Shown here in pieces: positions 251 to 40,425 of a DNA stretch of 51,548 nucleotides. Each line of letters starts with the position of its first letter. Position 1 is the stretch's first letter. The notes under the pieces are model-generated. The model was given only the letters and a program-made list of their open reading frames with translations. It was not told the origin of the DNA and did no database searches. A program made the translations under genes and the position numbers. The stretch is from Escherichia phage SKA49, in the sequence record NC_079180.1; one strand, given 5' to 3'.

Positions 251-270
251 CCATTAGTTGGTTGTGATTA
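251..270 (+). promoter_or_regulatory. variant of the phage promoter-like motif (CCATTAGTTGGTTGTGATT) upstream of the RNAP gene
   Basis: Matches the core CATTAGTTGG-TGTGA shared by seven other intergenic copies; lies 60 nt upstream of the RNAP start. Confidence 0.4.
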
Positions 271-330
271 TGAATAGGCTACGCAAGTCTAATCCGTTTC
301 AGTTAAATCATAATCAATTGGAGACTTATC

Positions 331-2445
331 ATGACTAACGAAGAATACCGTGCACTGGCTGCTGATGGCGCTCGCTTGAAAGAAGAAGGCCAAGGTTGGA
401 AAGACGTGCTCGATACGATGGACCGTTGCAACCAGATGGTAGATGAAATCACCTCCGTTACACAAACCGAAACTAAAACCGAAACTAAATTGGAGACTCG
501 CAAAATGACAACTATCTCAACTCAAACTATCAAATCCGTTGTCCCTGCTATCACTGCTCTGGTATATCGTGCCAAAGAGAAACAGAACTACATGCAGCCT
601 CAGACCTGTGCTATTGCTGCTCTTGCAATCTTTAAGATGATGACCTCATTCACTCGTGATGACGTTGTTCCTGCCATTGCGATGGTTGAGCTGGCTTCTG
701 CTTCTATTGCTGATGCCAACCGCTACAACAACGACTTGAAAGCAATGCACTATGTTGACCCAGCTATCAACCTCATTGGTCTGGCTAAGCACTTCGGCTT
801 CATTACCATGAACGAAGACAAGTCATTCCAACAGACTGACACATGGGTTGAACTGGTTACAACCAAAGACACAGCAGTGCCATTCACTGAGCGTGTTACA
901 TCTGAATCTCGTCGCAAGCCTTTCGTTAAAGGTGGCAAAGTTAAGCCATCCAAAACTTTGAAAGCTGCAATCGAATTCCTGCAAGATACTGAGTACCATG
1001 TGGAGACTGAGATGGTTCGCATCATCCAGTCCATGATTGAACAGCGTACTTATGGTGGCTTGCAGATGCCAGAAGCAATCCAGACTGAACTCCATGTTTG
1101 GAACAATGCTGTAGCAATGATGAATCAGGACACACTGTATTCTGACTACTTTGCTGACAACCGTGGTCGCCTGTATCATGTAGCATGTGCTGGTCCTAAC
1201 CCACAATCCTCTGACTTTGCTCGTTGCTTGTATTCTCACAATGTTGAGAACATCGTTAAGAAGTTTAACGAAGATGGTTCTACTACCATTGCATACAACA
1301 TGTTCATGGCAGAGCTGGAAGATATTTCCGGTGGTGAATGGTGCAGTGCTAAACGTCTGACCTATGTTGCTCAGAATCCAGCTGGTTCACTTGCTCGCAT
1401 GATGAACATGCCTAAAGCTGAACGTCCTTCTAAGCCATTCACTTATGTTCGTCTGGCTCTGGATTGGTTCAAGTTTGAGACTACAGGTGAATGCGATTCT
1501 CGTGTAGGCTTTGGCTTAGATGCTAAATGTTCTGGTACTCAATATCTGGCATTCATTGCTGGTAACATGGAAATGGCTCGTGCAACAGGTCTGGTTGATT
1601 CTGAGACTAAAGCATCTGACCCATACCAGTTGAGTCTTCGTGAACTGTTGAAGCTGCTGGACAAGTCTTCAATGAAACCTTCTGTTGAAATCATGGATGA
1701 ATTCTTGAACCCTAAAGCTGGTCGTAAGTTTATCAAAACTCCGTACATGGCTATTCAATATGGTGGTGGTAAAGCTGCATTAACTGGTTCATCTGACTTC
1801 ATTAGCTACATGACAGAAGCGCTCCAGATTCCTATGGAGAAAGCTGAGGCATTTGCTGAACTGTGTGTAGAAGCAATCCATAACGCATTGGGTGCTAAGA
1901 TTAACATGTTCATCGAGAAAGCTGCTGATGCTGCATACAACCGTTGTGTTGAACTCAACAAAGAGTACATCACATATCGTCACACTGATGGTCAGGTTGT
2001 AATGAAGCCTTGCTTCCCATCTCGTGAAATCTGTGAGGCATTCAGCATTCGTGTTGACTCACAAACTCGTGTTATCTTTGGCCAGATTCAGGAGAATAAG
2101 CCTTGGACCATTCGTGAATCCAATCCAACTAAAGAAGAATTCAAGCGTACTTTCGTTGTTAACTACATTCAAGGTATTGACGCATTGGTTGCTCGTACTG
2201 TTGCAGTTAAGGCTAAAGAAGCTGGTCTTCGTGGCTTCACTTCAATCCATGATTGTTTCCGTTGCTGTCTGGCAGATGCTCCACGTATGATGGAAGTTAT
2301 TCGTGCAGCATATGTTGAAATCTTTGTAACCAACAATCAATTCGAGAATCTGTCTAAGCAACTCGGTGGCATTCAGATGTATCATGAGAACATCGTAACC
2401 GAAGAGCTTCTGATGAGCGAACACGCTTACTACTTCTGTCAATAA
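331..2445 (+). CDS. T7-type single-subunit DNA-dependent RNA polymerase (compact, 704 aa)
   Basis: Motif A-like FGLDAKCSGTQYLA, motif B-like GRKFIKTPYMAIQYGGG, motif C TSIHDCF with catalytic Asp; GGAG RBS before ATG. Confidence 0.85.
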   Translation: MTNEEYRALAADGARLKEEGQGWKDVLDTMDRCNQMVDEITSVTQTETKTETKLETRKMTTISTQTIKSVVPAITALVYRAKEKQNYMQPQTCAIAALAIFKMMTSFTRDDVVPAIAMVELASASIADANRYNNDLKAMHYVDPAINLIGLAKHFGFITMNEDKSFQQTDTWVELVTTKDTAVPFTERVTSESRRKPFVKGGKVKPSKTLKAAIEFLQDTEYHVETEMVRIIQSMIEQRTYGGLQMPEAIQTELHVWNNAVAMMNQDTLYSDYFADNRGRLYHVACAGPNPQSSDFARCLYSHNVENIVKKFNEDGSTTIAYNMFMAELEDISGGEWCSAKRLTYVAQNPAGSLARMMNMPKAERPSKPFTYVRLALDWFKFETTGECDSRVGFGLDAKCSGTQYLAFIAGNMEMARATGLVDSETKASDPYQLSLRELLKLLDKSSMKPSVEIMDEFLNPKAGRKFIKTPYMAIQYGGGKAALTGSSDFISYMTEALQIPMEKAEAFAELCVEAIHNALGAKINMFIEKAADAAYNRCVELNKEYITYRHTDGQVVMKPCFPSREICEAFSIRVDSQTRVIFGQIQENKPWTIRESNPTKEEFKRTFVVNYIQGIDALVARTVAVKAKEAGLRGFTSIHDCFRCCLADAPRMMEVIRAAYVEIFVTNNQFENLSKQLGGIQMYHENIVTEELLMSEHAYYFCQ

Positions 2446-2453
2446 GAGAAACA

Positions 2454-2497
2454 GGGCTGTCATCGAAAGGTGATGGCCCTTTCTTTATTCTTTATTA
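2454..2497 (+). terminator. intrinsic terminator after RNAP gene
   Basis: Hairpin GGGCTGTCAT-CGAAAG-GTGATGGCCC (with G-T pairs) followed by TTTCTTTATTCTTTATT. Confidence 0.55.
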
Positions 2498-2525
2498 ATT
2501 AAATCCTTTAATTCCCAATATTCAA

Positions 2526-3300
2526 GCAATATTGCTGCATGTAATATTGTTTCAATATTCGACATTAGTTGGATGTGAAGTAACAGAATACGGAGAAGTA
2601 TTCCGCATGTCATGTTGAATCATTCTAGAAACATTCAGCATGTCAGCTTTGAGTTACAGCGTTGTAATGATGTGGCAATCATTGAACTCCCTGGGAAGGC
2701 CACCTACAGTTCCAGCAACCATGACTTAGAGTAGGAATATCTATCCGAAACTTGGACTTCATTGTAGTTTGGTGTGCTTCATCGTGAGAAAGGTAGCGAC
2801 AACTTTCATAAGCAAATAGCATGACTCATTCCAGACAAACTTGGAACAGCTCATGTAGTACCAGCATGTTCAATTGCGACAATATTGCTCCATCTCCTAT
2901 TATAAAGGCCCACCCACAAGCCGGGAGATAACTTTGGTAATATTGGAACTTTTGGACATGCTTCTTTCTTTCAATCAGAATTCGAAAGAAGAGAAGAGTC
3001 GGAGCAAAGCCTCTCGTTTACACGCAGAAGCCGCCCCGATTTTGAGCAACAAATATTGTGACAATATTGTCGCAGTATGGCATGTAAATATTGCTACAAA
3101 TTGGCATGTTAGAATGTGGCAGAATTGTTAGAGGACTAATCACCTCGAAGATACAATCGTCTGCCAATCTGGCATGTTAATTTTGTAACAGTATTTGTGC
3201 CAATTTCGCATGTAGTATTTAACCCAATATTCTTGCAACCCGCATGAATACTGGCTTTCAGCCAAGCGAAGGCTTTATCATCGCATGTAATATTGTGACA
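2526..3300. repeat. cluster of AT-rich palindromic motifs (CAATATTG, GACAATATTGTC) and GCATGTAATATTG-like repeats
   Basis: CAATATTG or near copies at about 2527, 2545, 2877, 3049, 3058, 3087, 3294, 3302; (G/C)GCATGT(A/T)A-TATT at about 2536, 3080, 3102, 3169, 3205, 3282. Confidence 0.5.
2562..2580 (+). promoter_or_regulatory. phage promoter-like motif ACATTAGTTGGATGTGAAG
   Basis: Conserved about 19-bp motif in an intergenic position, one of eight copies. Confidence 0.55.
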
Positions 3301-3508
3301 ATATTGGGATAAAACCCTTTATTTAAATCATTTAGTTTATTAATTAAATGGTCGGTTTTCTGTACATAGGTATTCAGCTGTTTGTGCCAAATACAAACAA
3401 GTTGGCTGCTTCTACAGAACTCCAGTGCTACAAATGTTCGTGCCAATCTGCTGCAATTTATCTCATTTGGCGGGGTAATATTGTATTAGGTTGGTACGTC
3501 ATTATTTC

Positions 3509-3529
3509 GATTAGTTGCATGTGAATAAG
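3509..3529 (+). promoter_or_regulatory. degenerate promoter-like motif GATTAGTTGCATGTGAATAAG
   Basis: Partial match to the ACATTAGTTGGATGTGAAG consensus, upstream of the early gene cluster. Confidence 0.3.
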
Positions 3530-3717
3530 ACCAAATCTCTGTAAATTCTGTGACAGATTTTAGAGAGATTATGTCTCCAAGCTAATCATTGTAGTTTTTA
3601 GACACTTTGTGTGTCACATATATAGCCTGTGAAAAACGTGTGGTATATTGCTGGATTGCGACGCGCCCACCAGACTAGGAAGTCACTGACGGCGGCACAC
3701 ACAGGAATACTATATAA

Positions 3718-3780
3718 CTCCCTACAACTTTAAGGTGGATTGAGGTAAGACAAGACCTCCACAATCGTTCTGTAGGGAGT
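3718..3780 (+). promoter_or_regulatory. 9-bp inverted repeat (CTCCCTACA ... TGTAGGGAG) with nested GTGGA/TCCAC stem, upstream of first early gene
   Basis: Perfect reverse-complement arms 3718-3726 and 3772-3780 separated by 45 nt; candidate RNA structure or processing site. Confidence 0.35.
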
Positions 3781-3804
3781 TTTCCTTTAACTTTGGAGAA
3801 TAAA

Positions 3805-4053
3805 ATGGATACTGTGATTAAAGCTGCTTGTTTCAAAGACCTGCAAGATGGTCAAATCTTCACTGTTCGTTCTGTGAAGTGGATTAAAGTAAATGAGTCA
3901 GATAAGTACAATGCTGTAAAGTTCTTTGATTCAAGCAAAGCATGTACTTTTAGCGACAATATTGTTGTCAATATTGAAGTCGAATTAATTCCTGATGACG
4001 GAGATGTTGAAGCAACTCTTCGTAACACTGCTGGATATAACGAGGGATTCTAA
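3805..4053 (+). CDS. hypothetical early protein (82 aa)
   Basis: ATG with GGAG RBS 6 nt upstream; track ORF begins at TTG 3793. Confidence 0.6.
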   Translation: MDTVIKAACFKDLQDGQIFTVRSVKWIKVNESDKYNAVKFFDSSKACTFSDNIVVNIEVELIPDDGDVEATLRNTAGYNEGF

Positions 4054-4296
4054 ATGAATTATGCTTTATATCAATACATCAATCGCGATGGTGTTGTTTC
4101 TCATGCTTTGGTTAATACTGAAACCAGAGCAATAATGTTGGCAGACTTAATATCTTATACATCACTTTACGAAAACAAGCTGGTGTGGAATAATGCCGCA
4201 TATCCTGAATATGTTTGGCAAGCAATCCAGAATGACAAACATCACAAAGTTGTGGCAACTGCCACACATCCAGATTTCTTGAAAGTAAGAGGTTAA
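4054..4296 (+). CDS. hypothetical early protein (80 aa)
   Basis: ATG abuts upstream stop (TAAATG); track ORF. Confidence 0.55.
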   Translation: MNYALYQYINRDGVVSHALVNTETRAIMLADLISYTSLYENKLVWNNAAYPEYVWQAIQNDKHHKVVATATHPDFLKVRG

Positions 4297-4298
4297 CA

Positions 4299-4487
4299 AT
4301 GGACTTCATCGTCTACTTTAAGTTAAATGGTGTGGAGCAAAGATTGTACTTCAATTCTTTACTTCGTTTGCAACAGTGGGCGGAGAAGTTTATTGGTTAC
4401 GACTTTGAATACATCAACGCATGTACACCTGACGAACATGAGGAAATCGTGTTCAGTTCATTAAACCAGATTCTGGAGGCCAAATGA
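4299..4487 (+). CDS. hypothetical early protein (62 aa)
   Basis: AAGAGG RBS before ATG; track ORF. Confidence 0.55.
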   Translation: MDFIVYFKLNGVEQRLYFNSLLRLQQWAEKFIGYDFEYINACTPDEHEEIVFSSLNQILEAK

Positions 4488-5087: not shown

Positions 5088-5099
5088 TAAGGCAATTCC

Positions 5100-6994: not shown

Positions 6995-7013
6995 ACATTA
7001 GTTGGATATGAGG
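6995..7013 (+). promoter_or_regulatory. phage promoter-like motif ACATTAGTTGGATATGAGG
   Basis: Conserved motif about 70 nt upstream of gene 7084. Confidence 0.55.
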
Positions 7014-7083: not shown

Positions 7084-7464
7084 ATGGCACAATATTCAGA
7101 TGTAAACACTGGCATTATCGGTCCTAACGGCTTCAAGAAAGACCCAAAACATCCTGACATTCGTGGACGTATTAACGTTGACGGAATCTGGTATTGGGTA
7201 TCCGGTTGGAACAAGCAAGCAAATGGTAATGAGTTTACCTCACTTGCATTAACCATCATGACCCAAGAACAGGTCGATGAAATGATGCGTAAGCGTGAAG
7301 AGAAAGCTAAAGCCAAAGCTCAACCTCAAGCTGCCGCTCAACAGCAACAGCCTCGACAGCAACCTTCCGCACAACAGCAAGCTCCTGCTCAGCAACAAGC
7401 TCCGCAGTCGTCTGCATACAACCCAAATGAACCACAGGACTTTGACAGCGACATTCCGTTCTAG
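7084..7464 (+). CDS. small protein with bacterial-SSB-type C-terminal tail (ends NEPQDFDSDIPF); candidate mini-SSB or SSB-tail mimic
   Basis: Trp/Gly-rich N-terminal domain, Q/A/P-rich linker, C-terminal acidic tip ending DIPF as in bacterial SSB. Confidence 0.5.
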   Translation: MAQYSDVNTGIIGPNGFKKDPKHPDIRGRINVDGIWYWVSGWNKQANGNEFTSLALTIMTQEQVDEMMRKREEKAKAKAQPQAAAQQQQPRQQPSAQQQAPAQQQAPQSSAYNPNEPQDFDSDIPF

Positions 7465-8221: not shown

Positions 8222-8572
8222 ATGAAAACTTTATACATTGCACTCACAATTTTGTTCGGGGTATTCGCATTCAAATCAGAAGCATCTGTTCGCAGCTTCC
8301 AGTGTGGCGGGTACAAAATGTCCGTTGAAACAATTACAATGAGCCAGCCACTCATTGCAACAATTTCTTTGCACGAAGGTACTTGGATTGAGATTCCAGA
8401 TAACGGAAATCCAAACCCAATGTCCACAGTGTTCTACAACACACAGAGCAGTAAACTGGCTTTAGTTGGTGTTGACGCTGAGGAACGTTTAGTGCTACAG
8501 ATTTATCGTGACATTGACTTCTTTCATGCCAAATTTCCACTTTTATCAACATATTGTAAGGAAGTTAAATGA
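8222..8572 (+). CDS. predicted secreted protein with N-terminal signal peptide (116 aa)
   Basis: N-terminus MKTLYIALTILFGVFAFKSEA is signal-peptide-like; GGAG RBS. Confidence 0.55.
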   Translation: MKTLYIALTILFGVFAFKSEASVRSFQCGGYKMSVETITMSQPLIATISLHEGTWIEIPDNGNPNPMSTVFYNTQSSKLALVGVDAEERLVLQIYRDIDFFHAKFPLLSTYCKEVK

Positions 8573-10265: not shown

Positions 10266-10334
10266 TTCCAGGCGGGTTTCTTCGAAGTGCCAAGCGGGTT
10301 TTGTGCTCGCATTGGCCTTCGGCTTTAGTCTGAA

Positions 10335-10353
10335 ACATTAGTGGGATTTGATT
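10335..10353 (+). promoter_or_regulatory. phage promoter-like motif ACATTAGTGGGATTTGATT
   Basis: Preceded by CTGAA as in other copies; intergenic. Confidence 0.45.
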
Positions 10354-10476
10354 CTGACCACTTAGGGGAAGAAAGGCATTATACACTTATCGCCAAATGG
10401 GTGTCAAGCACTTTCTTCATTTATTTAATTTTATTCTTATTATTCTTTTTGTTTGGAATATTGGAATAATTCTGAA

Positions 10477-10495
10477 ACATTAATTGGAATTGAAG
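10477..10495 (+). promoter_or_regulatory. phage promoter-like motif ACATTAATTGGAATTGAAG
   Basis: Preceded by TCTGAA; intergenic, second copy in the same spacer. Confidence 0.45.
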
Positions 10496-11134
10496 AGACA
10501 ACATCAGATAAGAGCTTTGTAACTAGGTAGTCCGTCTGGTACCAAGACGTGTGAGAACGTTCGATTCGTTCTACAAAGCTCTTTTCGATGGAATGTTTCC
10601 ATCATATACATTTATCTTTTTAACATAGGCCAAAGGGCCGGAATACTTATTCGCAGAAAAGCTATTCACTTGTTATAGGCGATGTATTGGGATGAATTGG
10701 AACTAAATAAGCAAGCTGCTAGGGCTGAATAATTAGAGGGGTAATGCCTCATGCTTATGTTAGTCATTCGAAAATAGGTTTGTGCCACAAGCTGCTGGTG
10801 CTCTGAGGAAGTCGGACAAACAGGGCTTAGAGTGGCATAATCCGCACAAAATCGCGCCACCAGCTATGCCAAAGCAGGTGGATTGGGTGAATGTATTGGG
10901 AAGGGTTGCAAAGCCTCTGCGACACGCCTGAGCCGCAAGGCGACGACACTCATGTGATTAGCGTATCGCACCCTAACGGGAGTAACCCTTCGCCAATGCA
11001 GTTATCCAGAATTGACACAAACGGTAGGCAGTGGTCCGATTTTCGGCCTTCCTGTGCTACTCTGTGGCCTGTTTCATGGGCCAAAAGATGAGAAGAGAAG
11101 TCACAAACACTGAATCGAAAATTGGAGAGTTCCT

Positions 11135-11761: not shown

Positions 11762-12436
11762 ATGTCTTATCATGATGATGACAAAGAGATTGCACTATCA
11801 ACGTGTAAGCAATGGCTCAATGATAATGATGCCGTCTATCTTGCCAAGGAAGATGTTATCATTATGTGGGTCCATTTTAATCCAGAATCAAAGCGCGGTG
11901 AGTGGCAACGCTACAAGATGAAAGAGGCTTGTCGCATAATTAAAGCCACACGCGCTGGCTTCTCTGCTATGAAATACATCAAGCCAGAGATGCTGATGCT
12001 TGCTGCACAGGAAGAAGAACGTGCATACAAGCAAGCTGTTAAATCTCGTTCAACTGTTCCTCCAGAGTTCTTTAATTTGGAGCGCGCTGGACACTTCAAC
12101 AATTTAGAAATGTTGACACTGTGCCTGTTGCAAGAATTAGTTGGAAGAGGACAAAACATTGAAGCTGTTTGTCTTGGAGAACTCATGAAAGAGTTGTTCT
12201 CGGCAAAGGGCTTTGCTGTGCCAAATCGAACTTTACGCTGGAAATTGTTGCGAGCAGTCGCGCAAGAAGCTGGTGTAGTTGTTCGTGACAGAACAAACCG
12301 ACTTACTGTAACTGGAGTTGGGCGTTTTGTAGCAATCCAGATTGAGGGTTATGACGAATCAATCATCACTGAACTCACTGTCGCTGAGACAAAGGATTTA
12401 GTAAATAAAACACTAGAACGATTCAATAGATATTGA
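11762..12436 (+). CDS. hypothetical protein (224 aa)
   Basis: ATG directly after upstream stop; in frame with track ORF 11705..12436. Confidence 0.5.
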   Translation: MSYHDDDKEIALSTCKQWLNDNDAVYLAKEDVIIMWVHFNPESKRGEWQRYKMKEACRIIKATRAGFSAMKYIKPEMLMLAAQEEERAYKQAVKSRSTVPPEFFNLERAGHFNNLEMLTLCLLQELVGRGQNIEAVCLGELMKELFSAKGFAVPNRTLRWKLLRAVAQEAGVVVRDRTNRLTVTGVGRFVAIQIEGYDESIITELTVAETKDLVNKTLERFNRY

Positions 12437-12465: not shown

Positions 12466-12484
12466 ACATTAGTTGGATGTGGAA
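12466..12484 (+). promoter_or_regulatory. phage promoter-like motif ACATTAGTTGGATGTGGAA
   Basis: Best consensus copy; about 75 nt upstream of the codon-optimised gene 12560. Confidence 0.6.
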
Positions 12485-12559: not shown

Positions 12560-12898
12560 ATGGCTAAGATTGTAACCGTAACTCAGTACGAAGCTAACGA
12601 TGGTTCCCTGTTCCTGACCGAAGCAGAGTGTAATGCACATGACTTCAAACTGGAAAACGGTGCTAAAATTGAGAAAGCTGCCGAAGCGTACCTGAACACC
12701 GTTGGCGCTATCGACCGTTCTCGCTCCATGCAGAAGAACACCATCGAGCAGTTCCTGGCATTCTACCTGCCGTGGGTTGAATCTGGTGAGCCGGAAGTTG
12801 AGCGTACTAAGTTCGATACTCCGAAAGAAGCTAAAGTTGCTGACGCAAGTGTTGCAGAAGCTGCCGAAGCTGCTGTTGAAGAAGCTCCGGTATTCTAA
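12560..12898 (+). CDS. small acidic protein with host-optimal codon usage (112 aa)
   Basis: AAGG RBS; codons dominated by CTG/CCG/CGT/GGT; strongly acidic, C-terminus AEAAEAAVEEAPVF. Confidence 0.7.
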   Translation: MAKIVTVTQYEANDGSLFLTEAECNAHDFKLENGAKIEKAAEAYLNTVGAIDRSRSMQKNTIEQFLAFYLPWVESGEPEVERTKFDTPKEAKVADASVAEAAEAAVEEAPVF

Positions 12899-13795
12899 GT
12901 TGCCGATGGCAAACTTGAGAGACTAAGCTAAATCGATCTGGCATGCACTGGAAGTTTCCGGTGCTGCCTTGAACCCATTCCAGAGTGAGTGGGCTTCAAT
13001 TTGTACATAATTCAAACACCAGTGCATGAGCCTTCGACGGAAGGCAATGTTGGGAAATTTGTTGTGTACAAATTGAAGTAGTTTTCTGAGTCTTACGACG
13101 GGCCTAAACTGCCTGGAGTTATTGCGACTGTTTTATTCATTTAAAATAAATGCAAATGATTCTGAAATGCGAGTTGCGGCTTAATTAAATTTAAGTCCTC
13201 TCCGTGGTCTTCCAATCCCACGTAACCAAATTTGGCGCATTGTGGCTTCGAGATGTGATTAATAAATCGGAGCAATAATTAATTTGTATTCTGCGATGCA
13301 AAGCAGGCTTAAGTCCTCCAGTGCGCGTGGGGATGTGACAGAGTACAAACTTAATTATGCAGTTGGATATTTCTAGAGGACGGACGAGCACACTGGAATG
13401 TCTTCAATTGGTTTAGTGTGAGAAGCTATGCCAATTTGAAACGTAACTCCTTGGGGAAGTGCTCCTCTGGATTTCCCTCCACGCAGGAATCTCAAGCCTG
13501 TGGCAGTGACTTCGAAGCTGCACTGCGTAACCTAATTCACCCTAAAGTGAATTGCCCTGAGCATGGAAATAAACTGCTCAAACCGATGGTATCTACAAAG
13601 GTAGATTAAATCAGGTTGCCTGTTGGTACTTGGGTTCAACACCTGCTTGCACTCGCAAAGTAGTGCCTCGTACCTGAGATGAAGTGAGTCGGGACCATCA
13701 ATCCCACGTTATGTCAAAACACAGTAGGCGACTCACGGATTCTACAAGCCTCGCAGTTCGGGAAAACCTGCGTTATCAAAACCCCCCACCTATTT

Positions 13796-13887
13796 GGACG
13801 AGTAGCTCAGAAGGTTTGCATTGTGCTCAGTCAGGTAGAGCAATCTGTTCGACAGATGTGTCGTTGGTTCGAATCCAACCTCGTCCA
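13796..13887 (+). tRNA. tRNA-like element (possible tRNA gene or pseudogene; isotype undetermined)
   Basis: Perfect 7-bp acceptor stem GGACGAG/CTCGTCC, canonical T-arm GTTGG-TTCGAAT-CCAAC, discriminator A; core about 19 nt longer than standard, with duplicated GCTCAG flanking a 20-nt insert. Confidence 0.4.
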
Positions 13888-13917
13888 CCCATTTTCAACA
13901 ATAAACATGGAGTCCTC

Positions 13918-18270: not shown

Positions 18271-20205
18271 GTGTTGTATCCTTGGGAAAATATGTATGCC
18301 AGTGACATTGAAACAACTGGCCTGTTGGAGCAAATGCGCAAGCAAGCTGCACCACGTCTTCACAACATCGGATATATTGATGTTCTGACTCGTGAAGAAA
18401 CTGTAATAGAATGGACCGACAGAAAATCTATCCAGGCATTTCTGGATACAGGCCCAACACTAATCATGCACAACGGCGCAACCTTTGACTTTGAAGCACT
18501 GAGGTTCCTTGGTTACGACGTTTCAAAATGTACACTAGTTGATACCTTGTTTATCAGTTGGTATCTGCAACCTCGTCGTGTTAAGCACGGTTTAGAAGGT
18601 TACGGCGAAGAGTTTGGTGTGCCAAAACCAGTCATTGAGGATTGGGAAAATCAAACTCAAGAAGAGTACAACCATCGTGTGATGGAAGACTGCAAGATTC
18701 AGTTGAAGCTGTGGGAACAGCAATACATTCAACTCTTGAAGATTTATAAATCTCCTAGCGAAGTTAAGCGCTTCGTTGAATATCTGATGACAAAAGCTCG
18801 TCAACAAGTTATTCAACAACGTACTCGCTGGAAGTTAAACATTGAGAAGGCATTGGCATTTAAGGCCAAGCTGGAACCAATGATTAAAGAGAAGACGGAC
18901 GCATTGGAAGCATCAATGCCACGTATTCCAGAATATGTTATCAAAACCCGTCCAGCTAAATGCCACAAGTTGAACGGACAACTGTCTGCCGCTGGTATTA
19001 AGTGGAAGGCTATATGTGATGCGAACGGTTTGGATTGGAAAGACCCAGAGATAGGTATCAGAATCTTAAAGGGCTATAAAGAACCGAACGCTGGTTCTCA
19101 CGTACAGATTAAGGATTGGTTGTTCAGCTTAGGTTGGGAACCAGAAACATTTAAGTTTGACCGCAATAAGGAAACAGGTGAAACCCGCCAGATTCCTCAA
19201 ATCACTGTGAAGGATGAAGATGGCAATCCTGAAATATGTCCAAGCCTGCATAAGTTGGCGGAAAGAAACCCCGAATCTGGTATTCAACATCTTATTGGGA
19301 TGGGCGTGTATAAACACCGTCTCTCTGTTGTTAATGGTTTCCTTCGCGACGTCGATGAAGACGGATACCTTACTGCACGATGTGGTGGCCTTACCAATAC
19401 TTTACGTCTTAAACACCGCGAACTTGTTAACCTCCCTTCTATTCGTGTATTTGGCGGTGAAGAACTGCGTTCAATGTTGGAAGCGTGGCGCGAAGACTAC
19501 GAACAGTTAGGCTCTGACTTGTGCTCACTGGAAGACCGTTGTAAACACCACTTCCAATGGATGTATGACCCTGAATACGTTAAGAAGCAGTTGGCACCAG
19601 ACTATGATGCTCACCTTGCAATTGGCGTAATTGGTGGATTTATTACAGAACAGGAATCTCAGGACCACAAGGACGGAATTAAGAAGTGTAAACAACGTCC
19701 AATGTTTAAGACCACAAACTATGCTTGTCAGTATGGTGCTGGTGTGCCAACTGTAGCTCGTTCTGCTGGCTGTGACCAGACTACTGCTGCACGACTGCAT
19801 AAAGCATATTGGGACTTGAACTGGTCTATTAAAGAGATTGCTGCAAACACCAAAGTTATCACAGTTGATGGTCAGATGTGGCAACAGAATCCAGTAAACA
19901 AATTCTGGTATTCATTGCGTACAGAGAAAGACCGCTTCTCCACATTGTGTCAGGGTACTGGTGCATATGTGTTTGATGTTTGGTGTAACAACATCATTGC
20001 AATTTGTAATGAACGTTGGGGATGTGACCCACTTCTGTCTGGACAATTCCACGATGAATTGATTCTCCAGGTTAAGAAAGGTTTCCGTGATTTGTGGACG
20101 GACTTGCTTAATGAAGCAATGGACCGAACCAACAAAGAACTTAAACTCAATCGTGATTGTGCATGTGATGTACAATTTGGCGACAACTACGCGGAGATTC
20201 ACTAA
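18271..20205 (+). CDS. family A DNA polymerase with 3'-5' exonuclease motifs
   Basis: Exo I DIETTGL, Exo II HNGATFDFEAL, motif B KQRPMFKTTNYACQYG, motif C FHDE; GTG start with GGAG RBS (alternative ATG 18292). Confidence 0.85.
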   Translation: MLYPWENMYASDIETTGLLEQMRKQAAPRLHNIGYIDVLTREETVIEWTDRKSIQAFLDTGPTLIMHNGATFDFEALRFLGYDVSKCTLVDTLFISWYLQPRRVKHGLEGYGEEFGVPKPVIEDWENQTQEEYNHRVMEDCKIQLKLWEQQYIQLLKIYKSPSEVKRFVEYLMTKARQQVIQQRTRWKLNIEKALAFKAKLEPMIKEKTDALEASMPRIPEYVIKTRPAKCHKLNGQLSAAGIKWKAICDANGLDWKDPEIGIRILKGYKEPNAGSHVQIKDWLFSLGWEPETFKFDRNKETGETRQIPQITVKDEDGNPEICPSLHKLAERNPESGIQHLIGMGVYKHRLSVVNGFLRDVDEDGYLTARCGGLTNTLRLKHRELVNLPSIRVFGGEELRSMLEAWREDYEQLGSDLCSLEDRCKHHFQWMYDPEYVKKQLAPDYDAHLAIGVIGGFITEQESQDHKDGIKKCKQRPMFKTTNYACQYGAGVPTVARSAGCDQTTAARLHKAYWDLNWSIKEIAANTKVITVDGQMWQQNPVNKFWYSLRTEKDRFSTLCQGTGAYVFDVWCNNIIAICNERWGCDPLLSGQFHDELILQVKKGFRDLWTDLLNEAMDRTNKELKLNRDCACDVQFGDNYAEIH

Positions 20206-20450
20206 TGGTTGTTGTATCTATATTCGACAAAGTGGACCATTTACACTTTGTCAATAAAGGCGAAGACGCACGGGAAGCTGTGCTGTCTGTAATTACCGAG
20301 AATGCTGAAACATTATTTGGAAGTGATTCTGCTACCAATTCAGTGTATCAGGCATTCATTAAAACTTTATCTGGTCCTGTCGTCAATGAGCAAGAGTTAA
20401 TCTCTTGTATGAACGACCTGGACTTCTCCCTAGTTATCACTCAACTGTAA
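20205..20450 (+). CDS. hypothetical protein (81 aa)
   Basis: ATG overlaps polymerase stop; track ORF. Confidence 0.5.
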   Translation: MVVVSIFDKVDHLHFVNKGEDAREAVLSVITENAETLFGSDSATNSVYQAFIKTLSGPVVNEQELISCMNDLDFSLVITQL

Positions 20451-20466: not shown

Positions 20467-21333
20467 ATGGCATTTGCTGCTCCTACACTGGCCTCGAACA
20501 AGACTCCTTCTGCTGCACCATTACTGGAAGCGGGTGGTTATCCTGCTCGTGTTTGCCGTATTATCGACCTGGGCTTACAGCCTGGTTCTGCTAAATATCC
20601 TACCCCGTCTCTGAAACTTCTGGTGACTTTCGAACTGCTCGACGAGTACATGAAAGAAGTTGACAGTGAAGGTAAAATGGTCATGGTTCAAGACCCAGAC
20701 GAAGATGACGGCATCATGATGGCGAAGAATCTTGAAGACAAGCCGCGTTGGTTTGACTTTGAGTTTACCTATAATGCTGACGGCTTCATGGGAGAGAACT
20801 CCCACATCTACAAATTCGCTAAGGCGATTGATGCACTGGAAGTTAAACCTAATCTGGAACAAGGCATTCAGGGCCATCCTGCCAAGAACCTGCCGGATTG
20901 GTTGGGCGAACCTCTGATTGTTGGCATTGTTCAGTATACCAAGCAGTCAGGTAAGAATGCGGGTCAGGTTGCGAACAAAGTTGCTACCTTCTCTCCGATG
21001 AAATCCAAAGAGAAGAAAGAAGCCAAAGCTCTGGTTAACCCGACTGTCTTCTTCGACATGTCCGAGCCGGACCTGGAAGTATTCAACAAACTGCCAGGTG
21101 GCGAATCTCCGTATGCAATCAAGAACCGTATCACTTCCGGTGTTGATTTCTACAAGACTAAGCTGTCTGCACTGTTAGGTGGCAAACCTGCTGATGATGG
21201 TGCTGTACCGAATCAGGCTTCTGATGAAGAAGTTGATGCAGCTATGAAAGCTGAACTAGAAGCACAAGCTGCTGCGAAAGCACAGCGTGAAGCTGAAGGT
21301 GGTGCTGCTGGCGGCACAGGTATGCCCTTCTGA
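20467..21333 (+). CDS. abundant replication-module protein of unknown function (288 aa); candidate ssDNA-binding or annealing protein
   Basis: Host-optimal codons; C-terminus ends Gly/Ala-rich then MPF; followed by strong terminator. Confidence 0.55.
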   Translation: MAFAAPTLASNKTPSAAPLLEAGGYPARVCRIIDLGLQPGSAKYPTPSLKLLVTFELLDEYMKEVDSEGKMVMVQDPDEDDGIMMAKNLEDKPRWFDFEFTYNADGFMGENSHIYKFAKAIDALEVKPNLEQGIQGHPAKNLPDWLGEPLIVGIVQYTKQSGKNAGQVANKVATFSPMKSKEKKEAKALVNPTVFFDMSEPDLEVFNKLPGGESPYAIKNRITSGVDFYKTKLSALLGGKPADDGAVPNQASDEEVDAAMKAELEAQAAAKAQREAEGGAAGGTGMPF

Positions 21334-23361: not shown

Positions 23362-24106
23362 GCTCCTCGATGACGGTACAAGATACACAAAGGCTCACGC
23401 ACATGATTGGGAAGACCCAGACTGCCGTATCAAAGGGCGCTGTGAACTCTTCATCAAGATTGACGGAATTCGAGCTATCCGTAATAAATCAGGTAGTGTC
23501 TGGAGTCGTAATTCCAAACCCCTACCTCATTTGGACCACTTACAGTTCAGAGATGCTGAGATATTCCGTAATAGTTGGAATGAGACTTCTAGCATCCTCG
23601 GACGTATTGACCCGCCAAGCATCCCACTAACCCAGGACAATGTGTATGAGTTGAGTGATGGTGCTGTTGACCCACGCCTGTACATCGGCTGGTGCAAAGA
23701 CCCAAGCAATGAAAACCTTAAGGCATTGATGGATAAATATCTGGCGCTTGGTCATGAAGGTATCATTGTCCGTGATGCAAGAGGTAAATGGTGGAAGATT
23801 GTACCATATAAATACGCCGATGTGAAGATTACTGGTATGAAAGAAGGTACTGGTGCTCTTAAAGGTATGTGTGGTTCTATCTCCTCGAACTACGGCAGTG
23901 CTGGTTCAATGGTGAAAGATTGTCTGGCAGACCACGGCATTCCAGAATCTAACACATTGATTCGTAAGTGGTTGTGGGAACATCGCCACGAACTAATTGG
24001 TTCGATTATGCAAGTTCGATATCGTGAGAAGACAGAAGCTGGTAAGTTCCGGTTCCCGTCACTCGTCCGTTTACGTGCAGACAAAAGTGAGGAAAGTTTT
24101 GATTAA
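23351..24106 (+). CDS. ATP-dependent DNA ligase (compact)
   Basis: Motif I FIKIDGIRA (KxDG); LGHEGIIVRDARGKWWKIVPYKYADVKI resembles motifs IV-V. Confidence 0.75.
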   Translation: MSIKLLDDGTRYTKAHAHDWEDPDCRIKGRCELFIKIDGIRAIRNKSGSVWSRNSKPLPHLDHLQFRDAEIFRNSWNETSSILGRIDPPSIPLTQDNVYELSDGAVDPRLYIGWCKDPSNENLKALMDKYLALGHEGIIVRDARGKWWKIVPYKYADVKITGMKEGTGALKGMCGSISSNYGSAGSMVKDCLADHGIPESNTLIRKWLWEHRHELIGSIMQVRYREKTEAGKFRFPSLVRLRADKSEESFD

Positions 24107-24725
24107 ACGATTAGCTGTTATTCTCAATGGACCTCCTGGCTGCGGCAAAGACACCATTGCAAATAAGATTGTTGCTGCTGAGGAACCTTACTTCCTCGGC
24201 AAACGCAAATTCATTAAACACCAGTTTAAGGATGCACTGTATGAGCATACTGCCAAACACTTTCAAGTTGATGTGGACAAGTTTATCCACTACGCTTCGG
24301 ACCGTGACCTCAAAGACTCTATCTCCCTTGCAGGTCTTGGTGGCAGAACACCTCGTCAGGCTCTTATTCACGTTAGCGAAGACGTGTATAAACCTCGCCA
24401 CGGACAAGACTACTTCGGTAAGGTTGAGGCTGCTCGTGTTGAAGAACTCGCGGGGCGTATGGGTGGCATTATTAATGTCATTTATCCCGATGGCGGTTTT
24501 GGTGATGAAGTCGTTGCCATTGAGTCTGCTTATGATTTTGTCCTCATTGTGCGTTTGCATCGTGATGGTTTTGATTTCACGGGCGATTCTCGCAGATACA
24601 TCAACCTCCCAGACACACCTACCCGCGTAACAGTGGATGAACATCTAGTTGATGGTAAAGTGGGTGATTCTGTATTCAAAGTGTTCAACTGGATTGAACG
24701 CGTAACTTATCAAGTAGAGAAATAA
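24099..24725 (+). CDS. deoxynucleoside monophosphate kinase-like P-loop protein (start uncertain: TTG 24099 or GTG 24087)
   Basis: P-loop LNGPPGCGKDT resembling T4 gp1 GxxRSGKDT; GAGGA before TTG; in frame with track ORF 23997..24725. Confidence 0.55.
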   Translation: MIKRLAVILNGPPGCGKDTIANKIVAAEEPYFLGKRKFIKHQFKDALYEHTAKHFQVDVDKFIHYASDRDLKDSISLAGLGGRTPRQALIHVSEDVYKPRHGQDYFGKVEAARVEELAGRMGGIINVIYPDGGFGDEVVAIESAYDFVLIVRLHRDGFDFTGDSRRYINLPDTPTRVTVDEHLVDGKVGDSVFKVFNWIERVTYQVEK

Positions 24726-24727
24726 TC

Positions 24728-25327
24728 ATGTCTTGTATGACCCAAGTTGTTGCAGTTAAACGAGTGCATCCTAATGCGAAATTACCTGTGTACGCTACTG
24801 CTGGCGCTGCTGCTGCTGACGTTTGCACTATCTCCGATAGCACTGTTGTTATCAATCCCGGCTGCTCTGCTGTTTTCGATACAGGCCTCCAATTCGAGAT
24901 TCCAGTTGGATACGAACTCAAAGTACATAGCCGTTCTGGTCATGGCTTTAAGTCTGGTATTCGCTTGGCAAACTGCACAGGAATTCTGGACTCCGATTAT
25001 CGTGGTAATCTTATGGTTAAGCTGCACAATGACTCGGACACAGCCTTTGTGGTTCAACCAGGTGAACGTATTTGTCAGGTGCAAGTTAGTAAAGCTACTC
25101 AACACCATTTCGTTGAAGTTGACAGCTTGAATGAAACTGCTCGTGGTGTAGGTGGCTTTGGTTCTACTGGACGTGTAGAAGTTGGTCAGTACGACCCAAG
25201 TCTTATCGTTCCATCAAACGGCTCACACTCGCACAGCATGTCTGTTGTTGGCGAAGGCACAACGGCCTTTGTTTCAGGAACAACTTCAATTGGTACCCAC
25301 ACTCGCGGGGCCGAACGTTACAAATAA
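24728..25327 (+). CDS. dut: dUTP pyrophosphatase
   Basis: dUTPase motifs RSGHG, GILDSDYRG, GERICQ, RGVGGFGSTG. Confidence 0.9.
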   Translation: MSCMTQVVAVKRVHPNAKLPVYATAGAAAADVCTISDSTVVINPGCSAVFDTGLQFEIPVGYELKVHSRSGHGFKSGIRLANCTGILDSDYRGNLMVKLHNDSDTAFVVQPGERICQVQVSKATQHHFVEVDSLNETARGVGGFGSTGRVEVGQYDPSLIVPSNGSHSHSMSVVGEGTTAFVSGTTSIGTHTRGAERYK

Positions 25328-25692: not shown

Positions 25693-25710
25693 GGAGGCTA
25701 TCTGGCCTCC
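25693..25710 (+). promoter_or_regulatory. hairpin GGAGGC-TATCTG-GCCTCC nested in GCGAC...GTCGC inverted repeat
   Basis: Perfect 6-bp stem in the 55-nt spacer before gene 25731. Confidence 0.3.
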
Positions 25711-25730: not shown

Positions 25731-25916
25731 ATGCGCACAATACAATGTCCTAACTGCCATTATGAAATTGCAGAAGATGATTTCATAACGCAGCAATGTC
25801 CTATCTGTGATTCATACATGCCACTAAACCGCCTGTATTTAAAGGCCGATTCTGGTTTAGGCAGCATCATTCGCATCAATCCCGTGCAAACTCAGCCATT
25901 AGTGGATTGTGATTAA
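25731..25916 (+). CDS. small zinc-ribbon protein (CPNCH...CPICD)
   Basis: Two CxxC pairs; GGAG RBS. Confidence 0.5.
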   Translation: MRTIQCPNCHYEIAEDDFITQQCPICDSYMPLNRLYLKADSGLGSIIRINPVQTQPLVDCD

Positions 25917-29486: not shown

Positions 29487-30519
29487 CGACGAAGATACCG
29501 TGAATGAAGTAGTTTTGTTGAACGACAAGGCTACTTTAACGACCCGTCGTTTACGTGACTCTGGCGAAATGATTGCAGAATGCACCATCGCTCGTACTGG
29601 CATCATGCTGTACAAAGCGAAAGAACTTGGTGAAATTGCAAAACATCTGGACCCAGAATCTATTTGCCGTGTTCGTACCAAGCCGGAAGTATTATTTGAC
29701 GAAGCAACCATCGAAGGCTGTCGTTCAATTCCGGTTACTATCGGCCATCCGAAAGATGATGTTAACATCAAGAACAACAAAGAACTCCAGAAAGGGTTCA
29801 TCGAAGGGCGTCCAGTTGCAGACGGCTCTTTCTTGGCTGCATCAATCGTTTTGAATGACGAGCAAGCTGTTCGATTAGTTGATTCTGGTGTTGACCAAAT
29901 CTCCTTGGGCCATAATGCTAAACTGGCTGTATCAGAAGATGGTGAAGCCGACTTCGATAAAGTTCGCATTATCCCTAACCATGTTGCAATTGTTGTTCGT
30001 GGTCGTGCTCAGACTACTCGCATTGGTGACTCTGGTGAAGAGATTGCCATTGTTGATAAGGCAACCTTTGATGTTGTTGAAGCAGAGCGTGATGCAGCGC
30101 TTGACAAGATTAGTGTCCTTGAACAGAAACTTGCTGATGCAGAAACTGCACGACTATCCGATGAAGCTATTCAGGCTGAGGTAGACAAACGTGTAGTTGC
30201 TCGTACAGCATTGCTTGTTGATGTGGCCCGTCTTGGCGACGAGTTCTCCAACCTCGATTTCTCCGGCAAGACCGATGCAGAAATTAAGTTGGCTGTAGTT
30301 AATAAATTGCATGACAAGGATTTCAGCGATAAGAGCGAAGACTATATCTCCGCCCGTTTCGATGCAGCTCTTGAAGATTGCGATTCCATTACTTTGGGAG
30401 ATGCCCTGAATCAGTCTATGCAATTCGCTGCTAAGAAAGATTCAGAAGCTCGTAAACCTAAAGTTTCTATTTCCGAAGAAGCTAACAAACGTCGTTTAGA
30501 ACGCTTCAACTCTTTATAA
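29455..30519 (+). CDS. prohead protease/scaffolding protein (putative; GTG start uncertain)
   Basis: Between portal and capsid genes; C-terminal coiled-coil ISVLEQKLADAETARLSDEAIQAEVDKR. Confidence 0.5.
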   Translation: MKQNQNLVQLNDEDTVNEVVLLNDKATLTTRRLRDSGEMIAECTIARTGIMLYKAKELGEIAKHLDPESICRVRTKPEVLFDEATIEGCRSIPVTIGHPKDDVNIKNNKELQKGFIEGRPVADGSFLAASIVLNDEQAVRLVDSGVDQISLGHNAKLAVSEDGEADFDKVRIIPNHVAIVVRGRAQTTRIGDSGEEIAIVDKATFDVVEAERDAALDKISVLEQKLADAETARLSDEAIQAEVDKRVVARTALLVDVARLGDEFSNLDFSGKTDAEIKLAVVNKLHDKDFSDKSEDYISARFDAALEDCDSITLGDALNQSMQFAAKKDSEARKPKVSISEEANKRRLERFNSL

Positions 30520-36019: not shown

Positions 36020-36030
36020 TTGGAGTAAGT

Positions 36031-36489: not shown

Positions 36490-36665
36490 TATCCCTGTTC
36501 CCCGACATAAAATATTTTCTGCATCGTCCTATAATCGAAGACAGTTCTCTCTGCAAGTTACGTGAATTGCAAGATGGAACCTATTCGATTATGGACTTAT
36601 TGCTATTCCACGACATTCTCGATTTGCGTAAGAAACTCGAACCAGTAGATGAAGACAATGGCTAA
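36031..36665 (+). CDS. predicted -1 frameshift product of tail assembly chaperone (G-T / E-E'-like)
   Basis: Slippery heptamer T_TTT_TTC at 36387-36393; -1 frame stop TGA 36384-36386 immediately upstream; -1 frame open for 93 codons to TAA 36663-36665, overlapping the tape-measure start. Confidence 0.5.
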
Positions 36666-39600: not shown

Positions 39601-40374
39601 GAGCAAGCTGGTTCGGTGGTAGAAGCGGGTAGAAACTCTGACTTTGCCGAAGGTATGGCCCAGTCGGAAATGTTGCAGGGAAGCCGCGCACGGATGCTGC
39701 CGAGCTACAACGTGCCACAAAGTGTCTTATCTAACGGTGCTTCCGTATTCGAGGCTGGCAGTGATTCACTTGATAGTGTACGCACTGGATTCAATAATAC
39801 GCGAGAATTTGCTGGAAGTGTTTACGACTTTATCGCCCAGGAAGAATCTGGCGGTCGTGAATATAACAAAGATGGTTCTCGTGTAACAAGTCGTACTGGT
39901 GCTCGTGGGATAATGCAGATTCTTCCTTCAACAGCTCGTGACCCAGGATTTGGAATCAGGCCGTCTGATGGAACTCCGGAAGATGATGCACGAGTTGGTC
40001 GTGAATATTATGACGCAATGTACAAGCGTTATGGCGACCACGAAAAGGCAATGGCTGCTTACACCGATGGTCCTGGAACTGTTGACAAAGCTGTTGATAA
40101 GAATGGGCTGGATTGGCTAACTGCTGTTCCTGTACAAGCACAGAATCGCGTCAAAGCATTCCGTGAATGGGCCAAGTCTTCTCAGACTTTGGAAGAAGGT
40201 GCTACAGGGTTTACTCGCAATGGAATGTCGTACGGTCAAACCCAAACTGTTGTTAATGTTAAGATTGATGCTAAGGTCAACAACCAGACTGCTTCTGCTA
40301 CAGTGGCAATTCCTGGTGGTCAGACTGTGACTCAACAAATGAACATGCACAATGGTGCGCAACAAAGAAGATAA
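36649..40374 (+). CDS. tape-measure-like large virion protein with C-terminal lytic transglycosylase domain
   Basis: Transglycosylase motifs QEESGG, GARGIMQILPSTA, AYTDGPGTV; Gly-rich segment; N-terminal Rho_N-like LSVNELIALGSQSGL; mid-region YqaJ-like motifs ITGSTVG...NPY, EHKNP, DQIQFGMHVSG. Confidence 0.6.
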   Translation: MKTMANQKDLMKLSVNELIALGSQSGLTFHAGMKKSHMVQQLSASAASGWLDTNAELMGGSFEDDSLITESLGDSSMISDAAHIAQVLSSAGYTEAFHAAMNGPTHHVEAVHAYMERLGVNTDDVWMHMPKPNPNLPQGSFNMLNAYMRDTLQGHQDIMPEIPGHYAGDIMAEYSTNRGNIADSYNYMAHMYVDREQYSNHEQYARDISRVAKRLEQELPAAFKEVGYTSASNVGNKSAPHISYMDALPQIGSPSIVSGIAHPRAPLNASGLPLGSYGSGINPEYSLTASLTGGTGWSEPSKALYSSISEAVKSAAKVYSGSKGMMNTRHEVSDRDMIMDSATRYTDLEEARSGYENLRSELADEPAYSASSVRAILENTYDKMDSEPVRIPKMKGASQRVEKDSQSTSTEFTAQLGEATNWNSARMRREEIAIANMDSAGFRDVSDYGTGRSESPVRFHDLEQGSQEWLDFRKNYDITGSTVGTFLGNNPYTRPWAGMIDKIGLSRSKEHSDFTKKMFADGHRTEEEARARVGKEFGFDIKQTGAITNDNYPAFMYSPDGLIGDDAIWEHKNPQRAGKFADLLKGDHPDYMDQIQFGMHVSGRSRALFSQTINDETRSQWIEKDEGWYERNRNRLDSVLGRLDAGREFVRNNAGLDREELIAGARSAMTGDGIWKDIRQRSTRGYSAIAGTPEDPFIGSRSSYNPKASYSDYQPNFVMHEQNFPATTGNGDTGNDSMALSVKKGILAAQEENRQKGIGADADFNGKADSMGWDRERFDAANGGGYSGGGGGRGGNFTSGGNYYDDYGRMGGSLAAGIAGGSIGSATNGVMQALMATPAGRMAAVGIGAIQIGNEAAEYMNDFIGNSLDAGVINPNEYSSMSQGLEMLGLNSQQAARLNQTTHSAYNTMLNGDPSAAVNIVRGSRGLLTIGDIRATGGDPVALARIMQERGKERGWSQARIAGAAEMAGLNGMARAYDRTEYSHEQAGSVVEAGRNSDFAEGMAQSEMLQGSRARMLPSYNVPQSVLSNGASVFEAGSDSLDSVRTGFNNTREFAGSVYDFIAQEESGGREYNKDGSRVTSRTGARGIMQILPSTARDPGFGIRPSDGTPEDDARVGREYYDAMYKRYGDHEKAMAAYTDGPGTVDKAVDKNGLDWLTAVPVQAQNRVKAFREWAKSSQTLEEGATGFTRNGMSYGQTQTVVNVKIDAKVNNQTASATVAIPGGQTVTQQMNMHNGAQQRR

Positions 40375-40380
40375 GGAGTT

Positions 40381-40406
40381 GGGGAGAAATCCCCAGCTTT
40401 CCTTTT
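40381..40406 (+). terminator. intrinsic terminator (GGGGA-GAAA-TCCCC then AGCTTTCCTTTT)
   Basis: GNRA tetraloop hairpin with T-rich tail directly after tape-measure stop. Confidence 0.55.
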
Positions 40407-40425
40407 ACATTAGTTGAACATGTAT
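40407..40425 (+). promoter_or_regulatory. phage promoter-like motif ACATTAGTTGAACATGTAT
   Basis: Immediately after terminator, 23 nt before baseplate gene 40448. Confidence 0.45.

Follow-up and report, generated by a model that had tools for sequence, protein, structure and literature searches.

Gene Organization and Location of the Repeated Element

The DNA analyzed here is the 51,548-nucleotide (nt) sequence of Escherichia phage SKA49 (NC_079180.1), which is called the window below and is meant at its full length. The window represents a phiEcoM-GJ1-like myovirus in which every long open reading frame (ORF) is located on the + strand, and its first 20 kb share 90–94% identity with the Escherichia phages DE15, Bp10, ST32, Mangalitsa, and phiEcoM-GJ1 (GJ1). 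Based on the taxonomy line of the GJ1 record, SKA49 is placed in the genus Carltongylesvirus (Chaseviridae, Cleopatravirinae). An ORF for a single-subunit (T7-like) RNA polymerase (RNAP) is followed, in this order, by genes for the primase-helicase, DNA polymerase, terminase, portal, capsid, sheath, and baseplate. The subject of this study is a short element with the consensus aaCATTAGTTGrAdgTGAad, which was found in ten + strand copies and is predicted to act as the promoter of that RNAP. The copies (sites A to I, site E being a tandem pair), the RNAP gene, and the terminator-like hairpins are as follows.

Site A: 251..269, + strand; cCATTAGTTGGTTGTGATT; 79 nt upstream of ATG 331 (small upstream ORF/RNAP); 23.8 bits with the independent weight matrix described below.
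RNAP gene: 331..2445, + strand; single-subunit (T7-like) RNAP ORF of 704 codons; phrog_414, E 1.2e-97; Pfam RNA_pol PF00940, E 1e-19.
Terminator-like hairpin directly after the RNAP gene: 2453..2480, + strand; 12 pairs, then TTCTTTATTC.
Site B: 2562..2580, + strand; ACATTAGTTGGATGTGAAG, the consensus with 0 mismatches; downstream of the RNAP gene and its terminator; GJ1 promoter 1.
Site C: 3508..3526, + strand; cGATTAGTTGCATGTGAAT, a weaker copy of 16.5 bits; 284 nt before the first early gene at 3793; GJ1 promoter 2.
Site D: 6995..7013, + strand; ACATTAGTTGGATATGAGG; 88 nt upstream of the single-stranded DNA-binding protein (SSB) gene, 7084–7464; GJ1 promoter 3; syntenic in 5/5 phages.
Site E1: 10335..10353, + strand; ACATTAGTGGGATTTGATT; first of the tandem pair; GJ1 promoter 4.
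Site E2: 10477..10495, + strand; ACATTAATTGGAATTGAAG; second of the tandem pair, 142 nt after E1; GJ1 promoter 5.
Site F: 12466..12484, + strand; ACATTAGTTGGATGTGGAA; 93 nt upstream of the gene at 12560–12898; GJ1 promoter 7; syntenic in 5/5 phages.
Site G: 20310..20328, + strand; CTGAAACATTATTTGGAAGTGATT; in the 3' part of the small ORF 20205–20450; GJ1 promoter 8; 24.2 bits with the independent matrix.
Terminator-like hairpin ahead of site H: 25693..25710, + strand; GGAGGCTATCTGGCCTCC, then a T-rich tail.
Site H: 25896..25914, + strand; CATTAGTGGATTGTGATT; 40 nt upstream of the start of the terminase large subunit gene at 25937.
Terminator-like hairpin after the gene of the 1241-amino acid (aa) virion protein: 40375..40400, + strand; 11 pairs, GGAGTTGGGGAGAAATCCCCAGCTTT, then CCTTTT.
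Site I: 40407..40425, + strand; ACATTAGTTGAACATGTAT; 40 nt upstream of the baseplate-hub gene at 40448; GJ1 promoter 9.

Ten Copies of the Element on One Strand

A sequence-only reading of the window had proposed eight copies of the motif as promoters of the phage RNAP. When the sequence was read directly at those eight coordinates, the motif was present at every one; the full count is ten, as the copies at 20311 and 25897 had been missed. Given by the C of CATTAG, the ten sites are located at 252, 2563, 3509, 6996, 10336, 10478, 12467, 20311, 25897, and 40408. Site C had been listed at 3509 as GATTAGTTGCATGTGAAT, a register one base off the others. All ten copies are on the + strand, in agreement with the coding-strand placement proposed earlier. 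The intergenic placement likewise holds for the eight noted sites, that at 3509 overlapping only an unannotated ORF of 58 codons in a stretch with no annotated gene in the relatives. A CTGAA sequence had been reported before three copies, but four are in fact preceded by CTGAAA (10336, 10478, 12467, and 20311).

Exact k-mer counts and single-linkage self-similarity clustering were too noisy for motifs and were replaced by a seed search of the non-ORF segments. The best seed in this pattern-free repeat search was GACATTAGTTGGAT. With up to 3 mismatches allowed, the exact 19-mer gave 4 matches in the whole window against 0.04 expected, and CATTAGTTGRNNNTG with up to 1 mismatch gave 11 matches, all on the + strand, against 0.74 expected; none of 100 shuffled sequences reached 11. 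To avoid circularity, an independent weight matrix was trained only on sites of other genera and metagenomic relatives. At a threshold of at least 15 bits, all ten sites were recovered with this matrix and none on the − strand (shuffle mean 0.32), the single extra + strand match being a coding one (8460, 15.5 bits). The scores of the cross-genus matrix were bimodal: exactly 10 positions on the + strand and 0 on the − strand reached 20 bits or more, and all other non-ORF gaps scored 11 bits or less. A scan of the genome and its relatives, which had been suggested as a check, returned ten sites in the window and the motif at syntenic places in the relatives.

The near-invariant positions of the element are T2, T3, A4, T6, T7, G8, and G14, with good conservation also of T13; beyond −1 to 16 the information content is negligible (0.2–0.4 bits). 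The properties by which a promoter type of this kind was recognized were all found, namely multiple copies, one asymmetric element of ~17–23 bp, orientation in the direction of transcription, and non-coding DNA upstream. Non-ORF gaps ahead of genes or gene blocks harbor eight of the ten sites, and the E1/E2 pair is located within a 625-nt ORF-free gap (10266–10890). Each of the three + strand terminator-like hairpins (2453–2480, 25693–25710, and 40375–40400) has a copy of the motif after it; the hairpin noticed earlier before 40407 was thereby borne out, with its 11 pairs and T-rich tail.

The earlier statement that the motif does not fit a sigma-70 promoter was also confirmed, as no −35/−10 pair at a fixed distance was found in the motif or its flanks. 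A sigma-70 promoter reading was rejected: the motif and its flanks contain no TTGACA/TATAAT-like pair of 16–18 nt spacing at a constant distance, and genome-wide counts of sigma-70-like sequences equal the shuffle expectation. A hairpin promoter of the N4 type, with a stem of 5–7 bp and a 3-nt loop, was sought and rejected as well, given that the pairing differs between sites and no stem is conserved. Coding constraint, in our judgment, accounts for the matches inside genes at 8460, 12135, and 29873, which are taken as look-alikes. The last of them (GATTAGTTGATTCTGGTG, 29873–29890) is located in the head-protease gene and is kept in GJ1 and 4HA13, apparently owing to the constraint on the encoded ...LVDSGV... 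rather than to promoter function.

The motif might instead act in the RNA, as a site of processing by RNase E or RNase III, an element affecting translation or stability, or a signal for anti-termination within polycistronic + strand transcripts. Its constant presence on the coding strand in untranslated gaps, and the small local hairpins that some copies form, would agree with such a role. However, no common structure was obtained when the ten sites were folded (z-scores −3.6 to +1.6), Rfam matched nothing but the tRNA, and the distance from motif to start codon varies from 40 to 555 nt. Moreover, site I starts 7 nt past a terminator-like stem and two more sites follow hairpins, where little read-through RNA would be present. 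An action in the RNA is considered very improbable.

Prior Annotation in phiEcoM-GJ1

The paper on the type phage phiEcoM-GJ1 is reportedly that of Jamalludeen et al. of 2008 (Appl Environ Microbiol 74:516). The proposal of the GJ1 authors was read off the features of the GenBank record EF460875, which holds nine features named "putative phage promoter" and one sigma-70 promoter. The promoter interpretation is thus already known, being the same as the 2008 GenBank annotation of GJ1, which is a prediction. The GJ1 features carry the same motif as the window, base for base or with 1–3 changes, and GJ1 promoters 1, 2, 3, 4, 5, 7, 8, and 9 correspond to window positions 2562, 3509, 6995, 10335, 10477, 12466, 20310, and 40407. 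The window copies therefore share both sequence and orthologous Carltongylesvirus positions with the GJ1 set. Seven of the eight copies noted earlier are GJ1 promoters 1–5, 7, and 9, and the copy at 20311 is promoter 8. For the copies at 251/252 and 25897, counterparts exist in GJ1 (572 and 26984) that carry no feature in EF460875. The equivalent of GJ1 promoter 6 is window position 12135 (AATTAGTTGGAAGAGGAC, 14.6 bits), which is located within a gene and looks like a coding-region look-alike. The annotated GJ1 sigma-70 promoter maps to the very start of the window, which opens inside its −10 region.

Conservation of the Element with the RNAP Clade

Five phages of four genera were compared by genome scans, namely the window phage, GJ1, 4HA13 (Sabourvirus), Y2 (Loessnervirus), and Myduc (Myducvirus); the RNAPs of 4HA13, Y2, and Myduc are 66–76% identical to that of the window. 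Across them the motif fills nine syntenic slots. The first four are located ahead of the RNAP gene, behind it, ahead of the early block, and ahead of the SSB gene; the fifth holds the tandem pair in the ORF-free gap behind the anti-restriction block; and the sixth to ninth are ahead of the orthologues of the genes at 12560 and 20467, the terminase gene, and the baseplate-hub gene. Site A has counterparts at GJ1 572, 4HA13 123, Y2 188, and Myduc 173. Site B is identical in GJ1 (2897–2916) and syntenic in 4HA13 (2706), Y2 (2228), and Myduc (2205). Counterparts were also found for site C (GJ1 3836, Y2 3098, and Myduc 3768), for site G, which lies 156 nt upstream of the gene 20467–21333 (GJ1 21899 and 4HA13 21701), for site H (GJ1 26984, unannotated there, 4HA13 27895, and Myduc 26993), and for site I (GJ1 41983, 4HA13 42331, Y2 43707, and Myduc 41613). 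In anchored alignments of five slots, the mean conservation was 0.87 in the motif columns versus 0.60 in the flanks, so that the motif forms an island.

In IMG/VR, the exact 18-mer was found on 8 of 2.9 million contigs, all of them 52–56.6 kb long. A protein search yielded a graded series of RNAP homologues down to 35% identity, and the DNA around eight of them was fetched (relatives with L numbers below). CATTAGTTGR was the top de novo seed in L014 and L016, whose RNAPs are 53 and 42% identical to that of the window, respectively. Variants were observed in other relatives. In L010 (RNAP 43% identity) the motif is present with a changed 3' half, ATGGAGAATA; in L009 (54%) the first two bases are changed to GC, AG, or CG, followed by TTAGTTGG; and L013 (36%) carries three intergenic copies of TTAGCTGAG(G/T)TG. 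L015 (52%) has 6 copies of TTAGTAGG and 0 of TTAGTTGR, the reverse of every other genome. The absence of the motif from relatives with the same RNAP, named earlier as an outcome that would speak against the proposal, was looked for and was not found: the element is conserved together with this RNAP down to 42% identity, and judged from these sequences it is confined to genomes with this RNAP clade.

Several of the relatives (L009, L010, L014, L015, and L016; RNAP 42–54% identity) carry an integrase gene. In L010, L014, L015, and L016 it adjoins the holin and RNAP genes, with an endolysin gene after the holin gene except in L015, and in L009 it is located ~6 kb downstream of the RNAP gene. The integrase regions are L014 6881–11947, L016 7531–11884, L010 151–4650, L015 2377–8033, and L009 18330–19304. 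L014 lies within a 4.8-Mb Hafnia alvei chromosome with host genes at its left, and L016 is flanked by type VI secretion system and chemotaxis genes. This suggests that the integrase-bearing relatives are temperate or integrated members, with the same motif, of a family described as strictly lytic.

In the Aeromonas phage pAh6-C (L008, Nefertitivirinae), the RNAP has 843 aa and no CATTAGTTGG motif is present. The highest-ranking repeat between its genes, GGCTC-N3-5-GAGCC-ACAAGA, resembles a hairpin and occurs six or seven times (23715–25102 and 28890), in a cluster right behind the RNAP gene.

The RNAP and Its Candidate Specificity Loop

The window encodes a single-subunit RNAP that has the T7/Pol A fold and aligned catalytic aspartates. 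The profile search identified it as T7-like (E 6e-14). With phmmer against PDB, nothing was found at E ≤ 0.001, the long ORF reaching only E 0.004. The AlphaFold2 model (predicted local distance difference test score 90.7, predicted template modeling score 0.85) had T7 RNAP as its best PDB match (E 8.6e-20, template modeling score 0.59, 15% identity). The conserved stretches LDAKCSGTQY and IHDCF, of motifs A and C, align to the T7 catalytic aspartates, D537 and D812. The conserved core probably starts at ATG 505, giving a protein of 646 aa, and homology to most relatives begins at residue 62–68 of the long ORF. ATG 505 has the same upstream AATTGGAGACT ribosome-binding context as ATG 331. The upstream part (331–507) is a separate small gene in GJ1 and 4HA13 and is fused in frame in the window, Bp10, and Mangalitsa. 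The RNAP is ~240 residues shorter than T7 RNAP, mostly at the N-terminus, and T7 residue 318 aligns at about residue 163.

In the model, four beta-strands are located at residues 506–537, just before the helix aligned to the T7 segment that follows the specificity loop. The beta-hairpin at ~505–537 (FSIRVDSQTRVIFGQ...) may therefore be the specificity loop. The candidate loop reads as follows in the groups that were compared.

CATTAGTTGG group: FSIRVDSQTRVIFGQ, with conservative substitutions only.
L009: SIRLDPRTR.
L010: AIRVAANVN-VNFGN.
L015: SIRVADKMP-AYFGS.
L013: TEIRYTQSTV-IGFGS.
L011: SLFLGTGEQTMYFGK.

The motif variants, including the change from TTAGTTG to TTAGTAG in L015 and those in L009, L010, and L013, accompany changes of the candidate loop, which is suggestive of a link between the two.

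Comparison with Known Promoter Systems

The element resembles the promoters of the T7 group (T7, T3, K11, and SP6) in being an asymmetric duplex element of ~17–19 bp, in the near-identical copies on one strand that are located before gene blocks, behind terminators, and as a tandem pair, and in the T7-fold polymerase encoded by the same phage. The SP6 promoter is ATTTAGGTGACACTATAGAAG; it shares TTAG.TG....T..AG with the window motif, which is a lead and not a test. Several differences were also observed. The window RNAP shares 14–16% identity with T7 RNAP in addition to its smaller size; the copies are less uniform than those of T7, and the best ones are located in the early and middle region, not before the capsid genes. 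Unlike the T7 group, moreover, SKA49 has a copy that precedes the RNAP gene itself, and it is a myovirus, with a contractile tail and a terminal repeat of ~3.2 kb.

The promoters of the N4 virion RNAP are extruded DNA hairpins with a stem of 5–7 bp and a 3-nt loop. The two systems are alike in having a divergent single-subunit phage RNAP as the reader, but only some of the window copies can pair around AAC-ATTA-GTT and their flanks keep no stem.

Evaluation of the Promoter Interpretation

Several observations weigh against a promoter of the phage RNAP. Two of the ten sites lie inside small ORFs, at their 3' ends, and the 300–550 nt that follow sites B, E1, and E2 are ORF-free and contain no genes. 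The 25-kb late region holds two sites only, both off consensus, with none ahead of the major capsid gene. No equivalent motif was found in repeat searches of pAh6-C, L011, and L012, which belong to more distant RNAP clades, and the assignment of the loop at 505–537 is based on alignment position and predicted secondary structure, not on residue-level superposition. In the literature search, no transcript 5' ends and no in vitro transcription data were found for the motif, and a search with the motif string returned unrelated primers only. The promoters are not discussed in the genome papers on 4HA13 and ST32, and the 2022 ICTV profile of Chaseviridae calls them "not yet identified"; the interpretation has therefore been published only as a prediction.

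The 5' half CATTAGTTG is, moreover, almost unchanged across RNAPs of only 42–53% identity. The T7 and T3 RNAPs, which are far closer to each other, already differ in their promoters. The reader of the motif could accordingly be something more conserved than the RNAP, such as a phage activator or repressor, a sigma-like factor that redirects the host RNAP, or a host protein. A more conserved reader would explain the stability of the 5' half more easily, and more than half of the early genes are without known function. On the other hand, no −35 or −10 element of the sigma-70 type keeps a fixed phase to the motif, the dyad symmetry of dimeric regulators is lacking, and the motif was found only in genomes of this RNAP clade and changes where the candidate loop changes. 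A reader other than the phage RNAP is regarded as unlikely.

The restriction to one strand, the placement of the copies, the terminators, the synteny across genera, and the association with one RNAP clade support the phage-RNAP promoter that the sequence-only reading had put forward. Judged from the sequence comparisons, the ten copies are most likely duplex promoters for the T7-like RNAP of the phage.

Proposed Mechanism

From the analogy with T7, we infer how the loop would recognize the element, where transcription would start, and at which stages the sites would be used. The T7 RNAP–promoter complex (PDB 1CEZ) is the source of the recognition analogy. The host RNAP would make the first phage polymerase. 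Its fingers beta-hairpin (505–537) would read the major groove of the invariant TTAGTTG in duplex DNA, the less conserved A/T-rich 3' part (dgTGAad) would be melted, and RNA synthesis would begin ~15–18 nt downstream from the C in CATTAG, perhaps with the G in GAAG. At site A, the polymerase would amplify its own gene in a positive feedback. Sites B to F would drive the early and middle genes, and the off-consensus sites G to I would re-initiate transcription past terminators, before the replication-late, packaging, and tail-baseplate blocks. All genes are in one orientation, so read-through would supply the rest.

Neighboring Elements and Genome Ends

Between E1 and E2, a perfect sigma-70 consensus (TTGACA-18-TATAAT) is located on the − strand at 10378–10407, pointing leftward in an otherwise all-rightward genome. 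GJ1, 4HA13, and Myduc share its two hexamers and their 18-nt distance, with a diverged spacer, and the consensus adjoins an 87% A+T tract at ~10405–10470. By analogy with T7, E1/E2 together with this consensus and the A+T tract may form a transcription-primed replication origin. The motif itself might serve as a signal in replication, packaging, or recombination, in the manner of iterons, primase sites, or Chi-like sequences; the T7-primary-origin-like surroundings of E1/E2 and the location of two copies in the terminal repeat, by homology, could be cited for this. The sites are, however, spread over 40 kb, before genes or blocks and behind terminators, and a signal of this kind is scarcely credible as the function of the motif. 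The T7 primary origin itself consists of RNAP promoters, so an origin role of E1/E2 would add to the promoter function, not replace it.

Further conserved non-coding elements were observed. Downstream of E2, in the same ORF-free gap, AAGCTGCTAGGGCTGAATAATTAG (~10703–10730) is also present in Y2 and Myduc and has no Rfam match. Directly after site B (2581–2616), a conserved leader, TAACAGAATACGGAGAAGTATTCCGCATGTCATG, has a possible GAATAC/GTATTC stem, and all four genera retain the GCATGTCAT within it. Another repeat family, GCATGTAATATTGTGACAATATTG, is built on the palindrome CAATATTG and occupies window 2525–3976, with copies at ~2537–2560, 2872–2889, 3046–3071, 3283–3306, and 3949–3976. These repeats fill the ~1.2-kb ORF-free stretch from site B to the first early gene. 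Twelve of the 28 genome-wide near-matches fall within 1.45 kb, and the full 24-mer has 3 matches against 0 expected. The family is abundant in L009 (TTAATATTGTGACAA, 8–9 copies) and was also seen in 4HA13 and Y2. The repeats may serve as early host promoters, form an operator array, or act as signals for end processing.

In Mangalitsa, the terminal repeat spans 1–3234 and the RNAP coding sequence 211–2325. By homology, the physical left end of the SKA49 genome would be near window position 121 and the end of the repeat near 3354, a boundary that the GCATGTAATATTGTGACAATATTG array spans. Site A would thus be located inside the direct terminal repeat, and virion DNA would carry two copies each of site A, site B, and the RNAP gene. 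The true end would be situated 120 nt to the right of the point where the window opens, and the annotated GJ1 sigma-70 promoter would lie just outside the repeat. A 97-nt tRNA gene is located at 13795–13891 (Rfam 45 bits); ARAGORN calls it tRNA-Leu(cag), and in the GJ1 record the orthologue is named tRNA-Arg with a possible intron.

Implications

The known set of these elements is extended here from the eight copies noted earlier to ten, with 251 and 25897 going beyond the GJ1 annotation. It is possible, if less probable than not, that a compact 646-aa polymerase is paired with a promoter of ~17 bp whose half CATTAGTTG stays fixed down to 42% RNAP identity, also in relatives from Hafnia and other chromosomes that bear an integrase and seem to be temperate, that at least one natural switch from TTG to TAG, in a Symbiopectobacterium element, is coupled to a changed beta-hairpin, and that E1/E2 may be an origin. 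If so, the family would supply a small, T7-orthogonal polymerase for which specificity variants are already at hand, and this polymerase, with its defined promoter of 17–19 bp, would constitute a compact expression tool. For the Chaseviridae, myoviruses with a T7-like RNAP whose promoters are listed as unidentified in the 2022 ICTV profile, the 2008 prediction becomes much firmer through the ten clean sites, the nine slots shared in synteny by four genera, the restriction of the motif to the family, and its lineage-specific variants.

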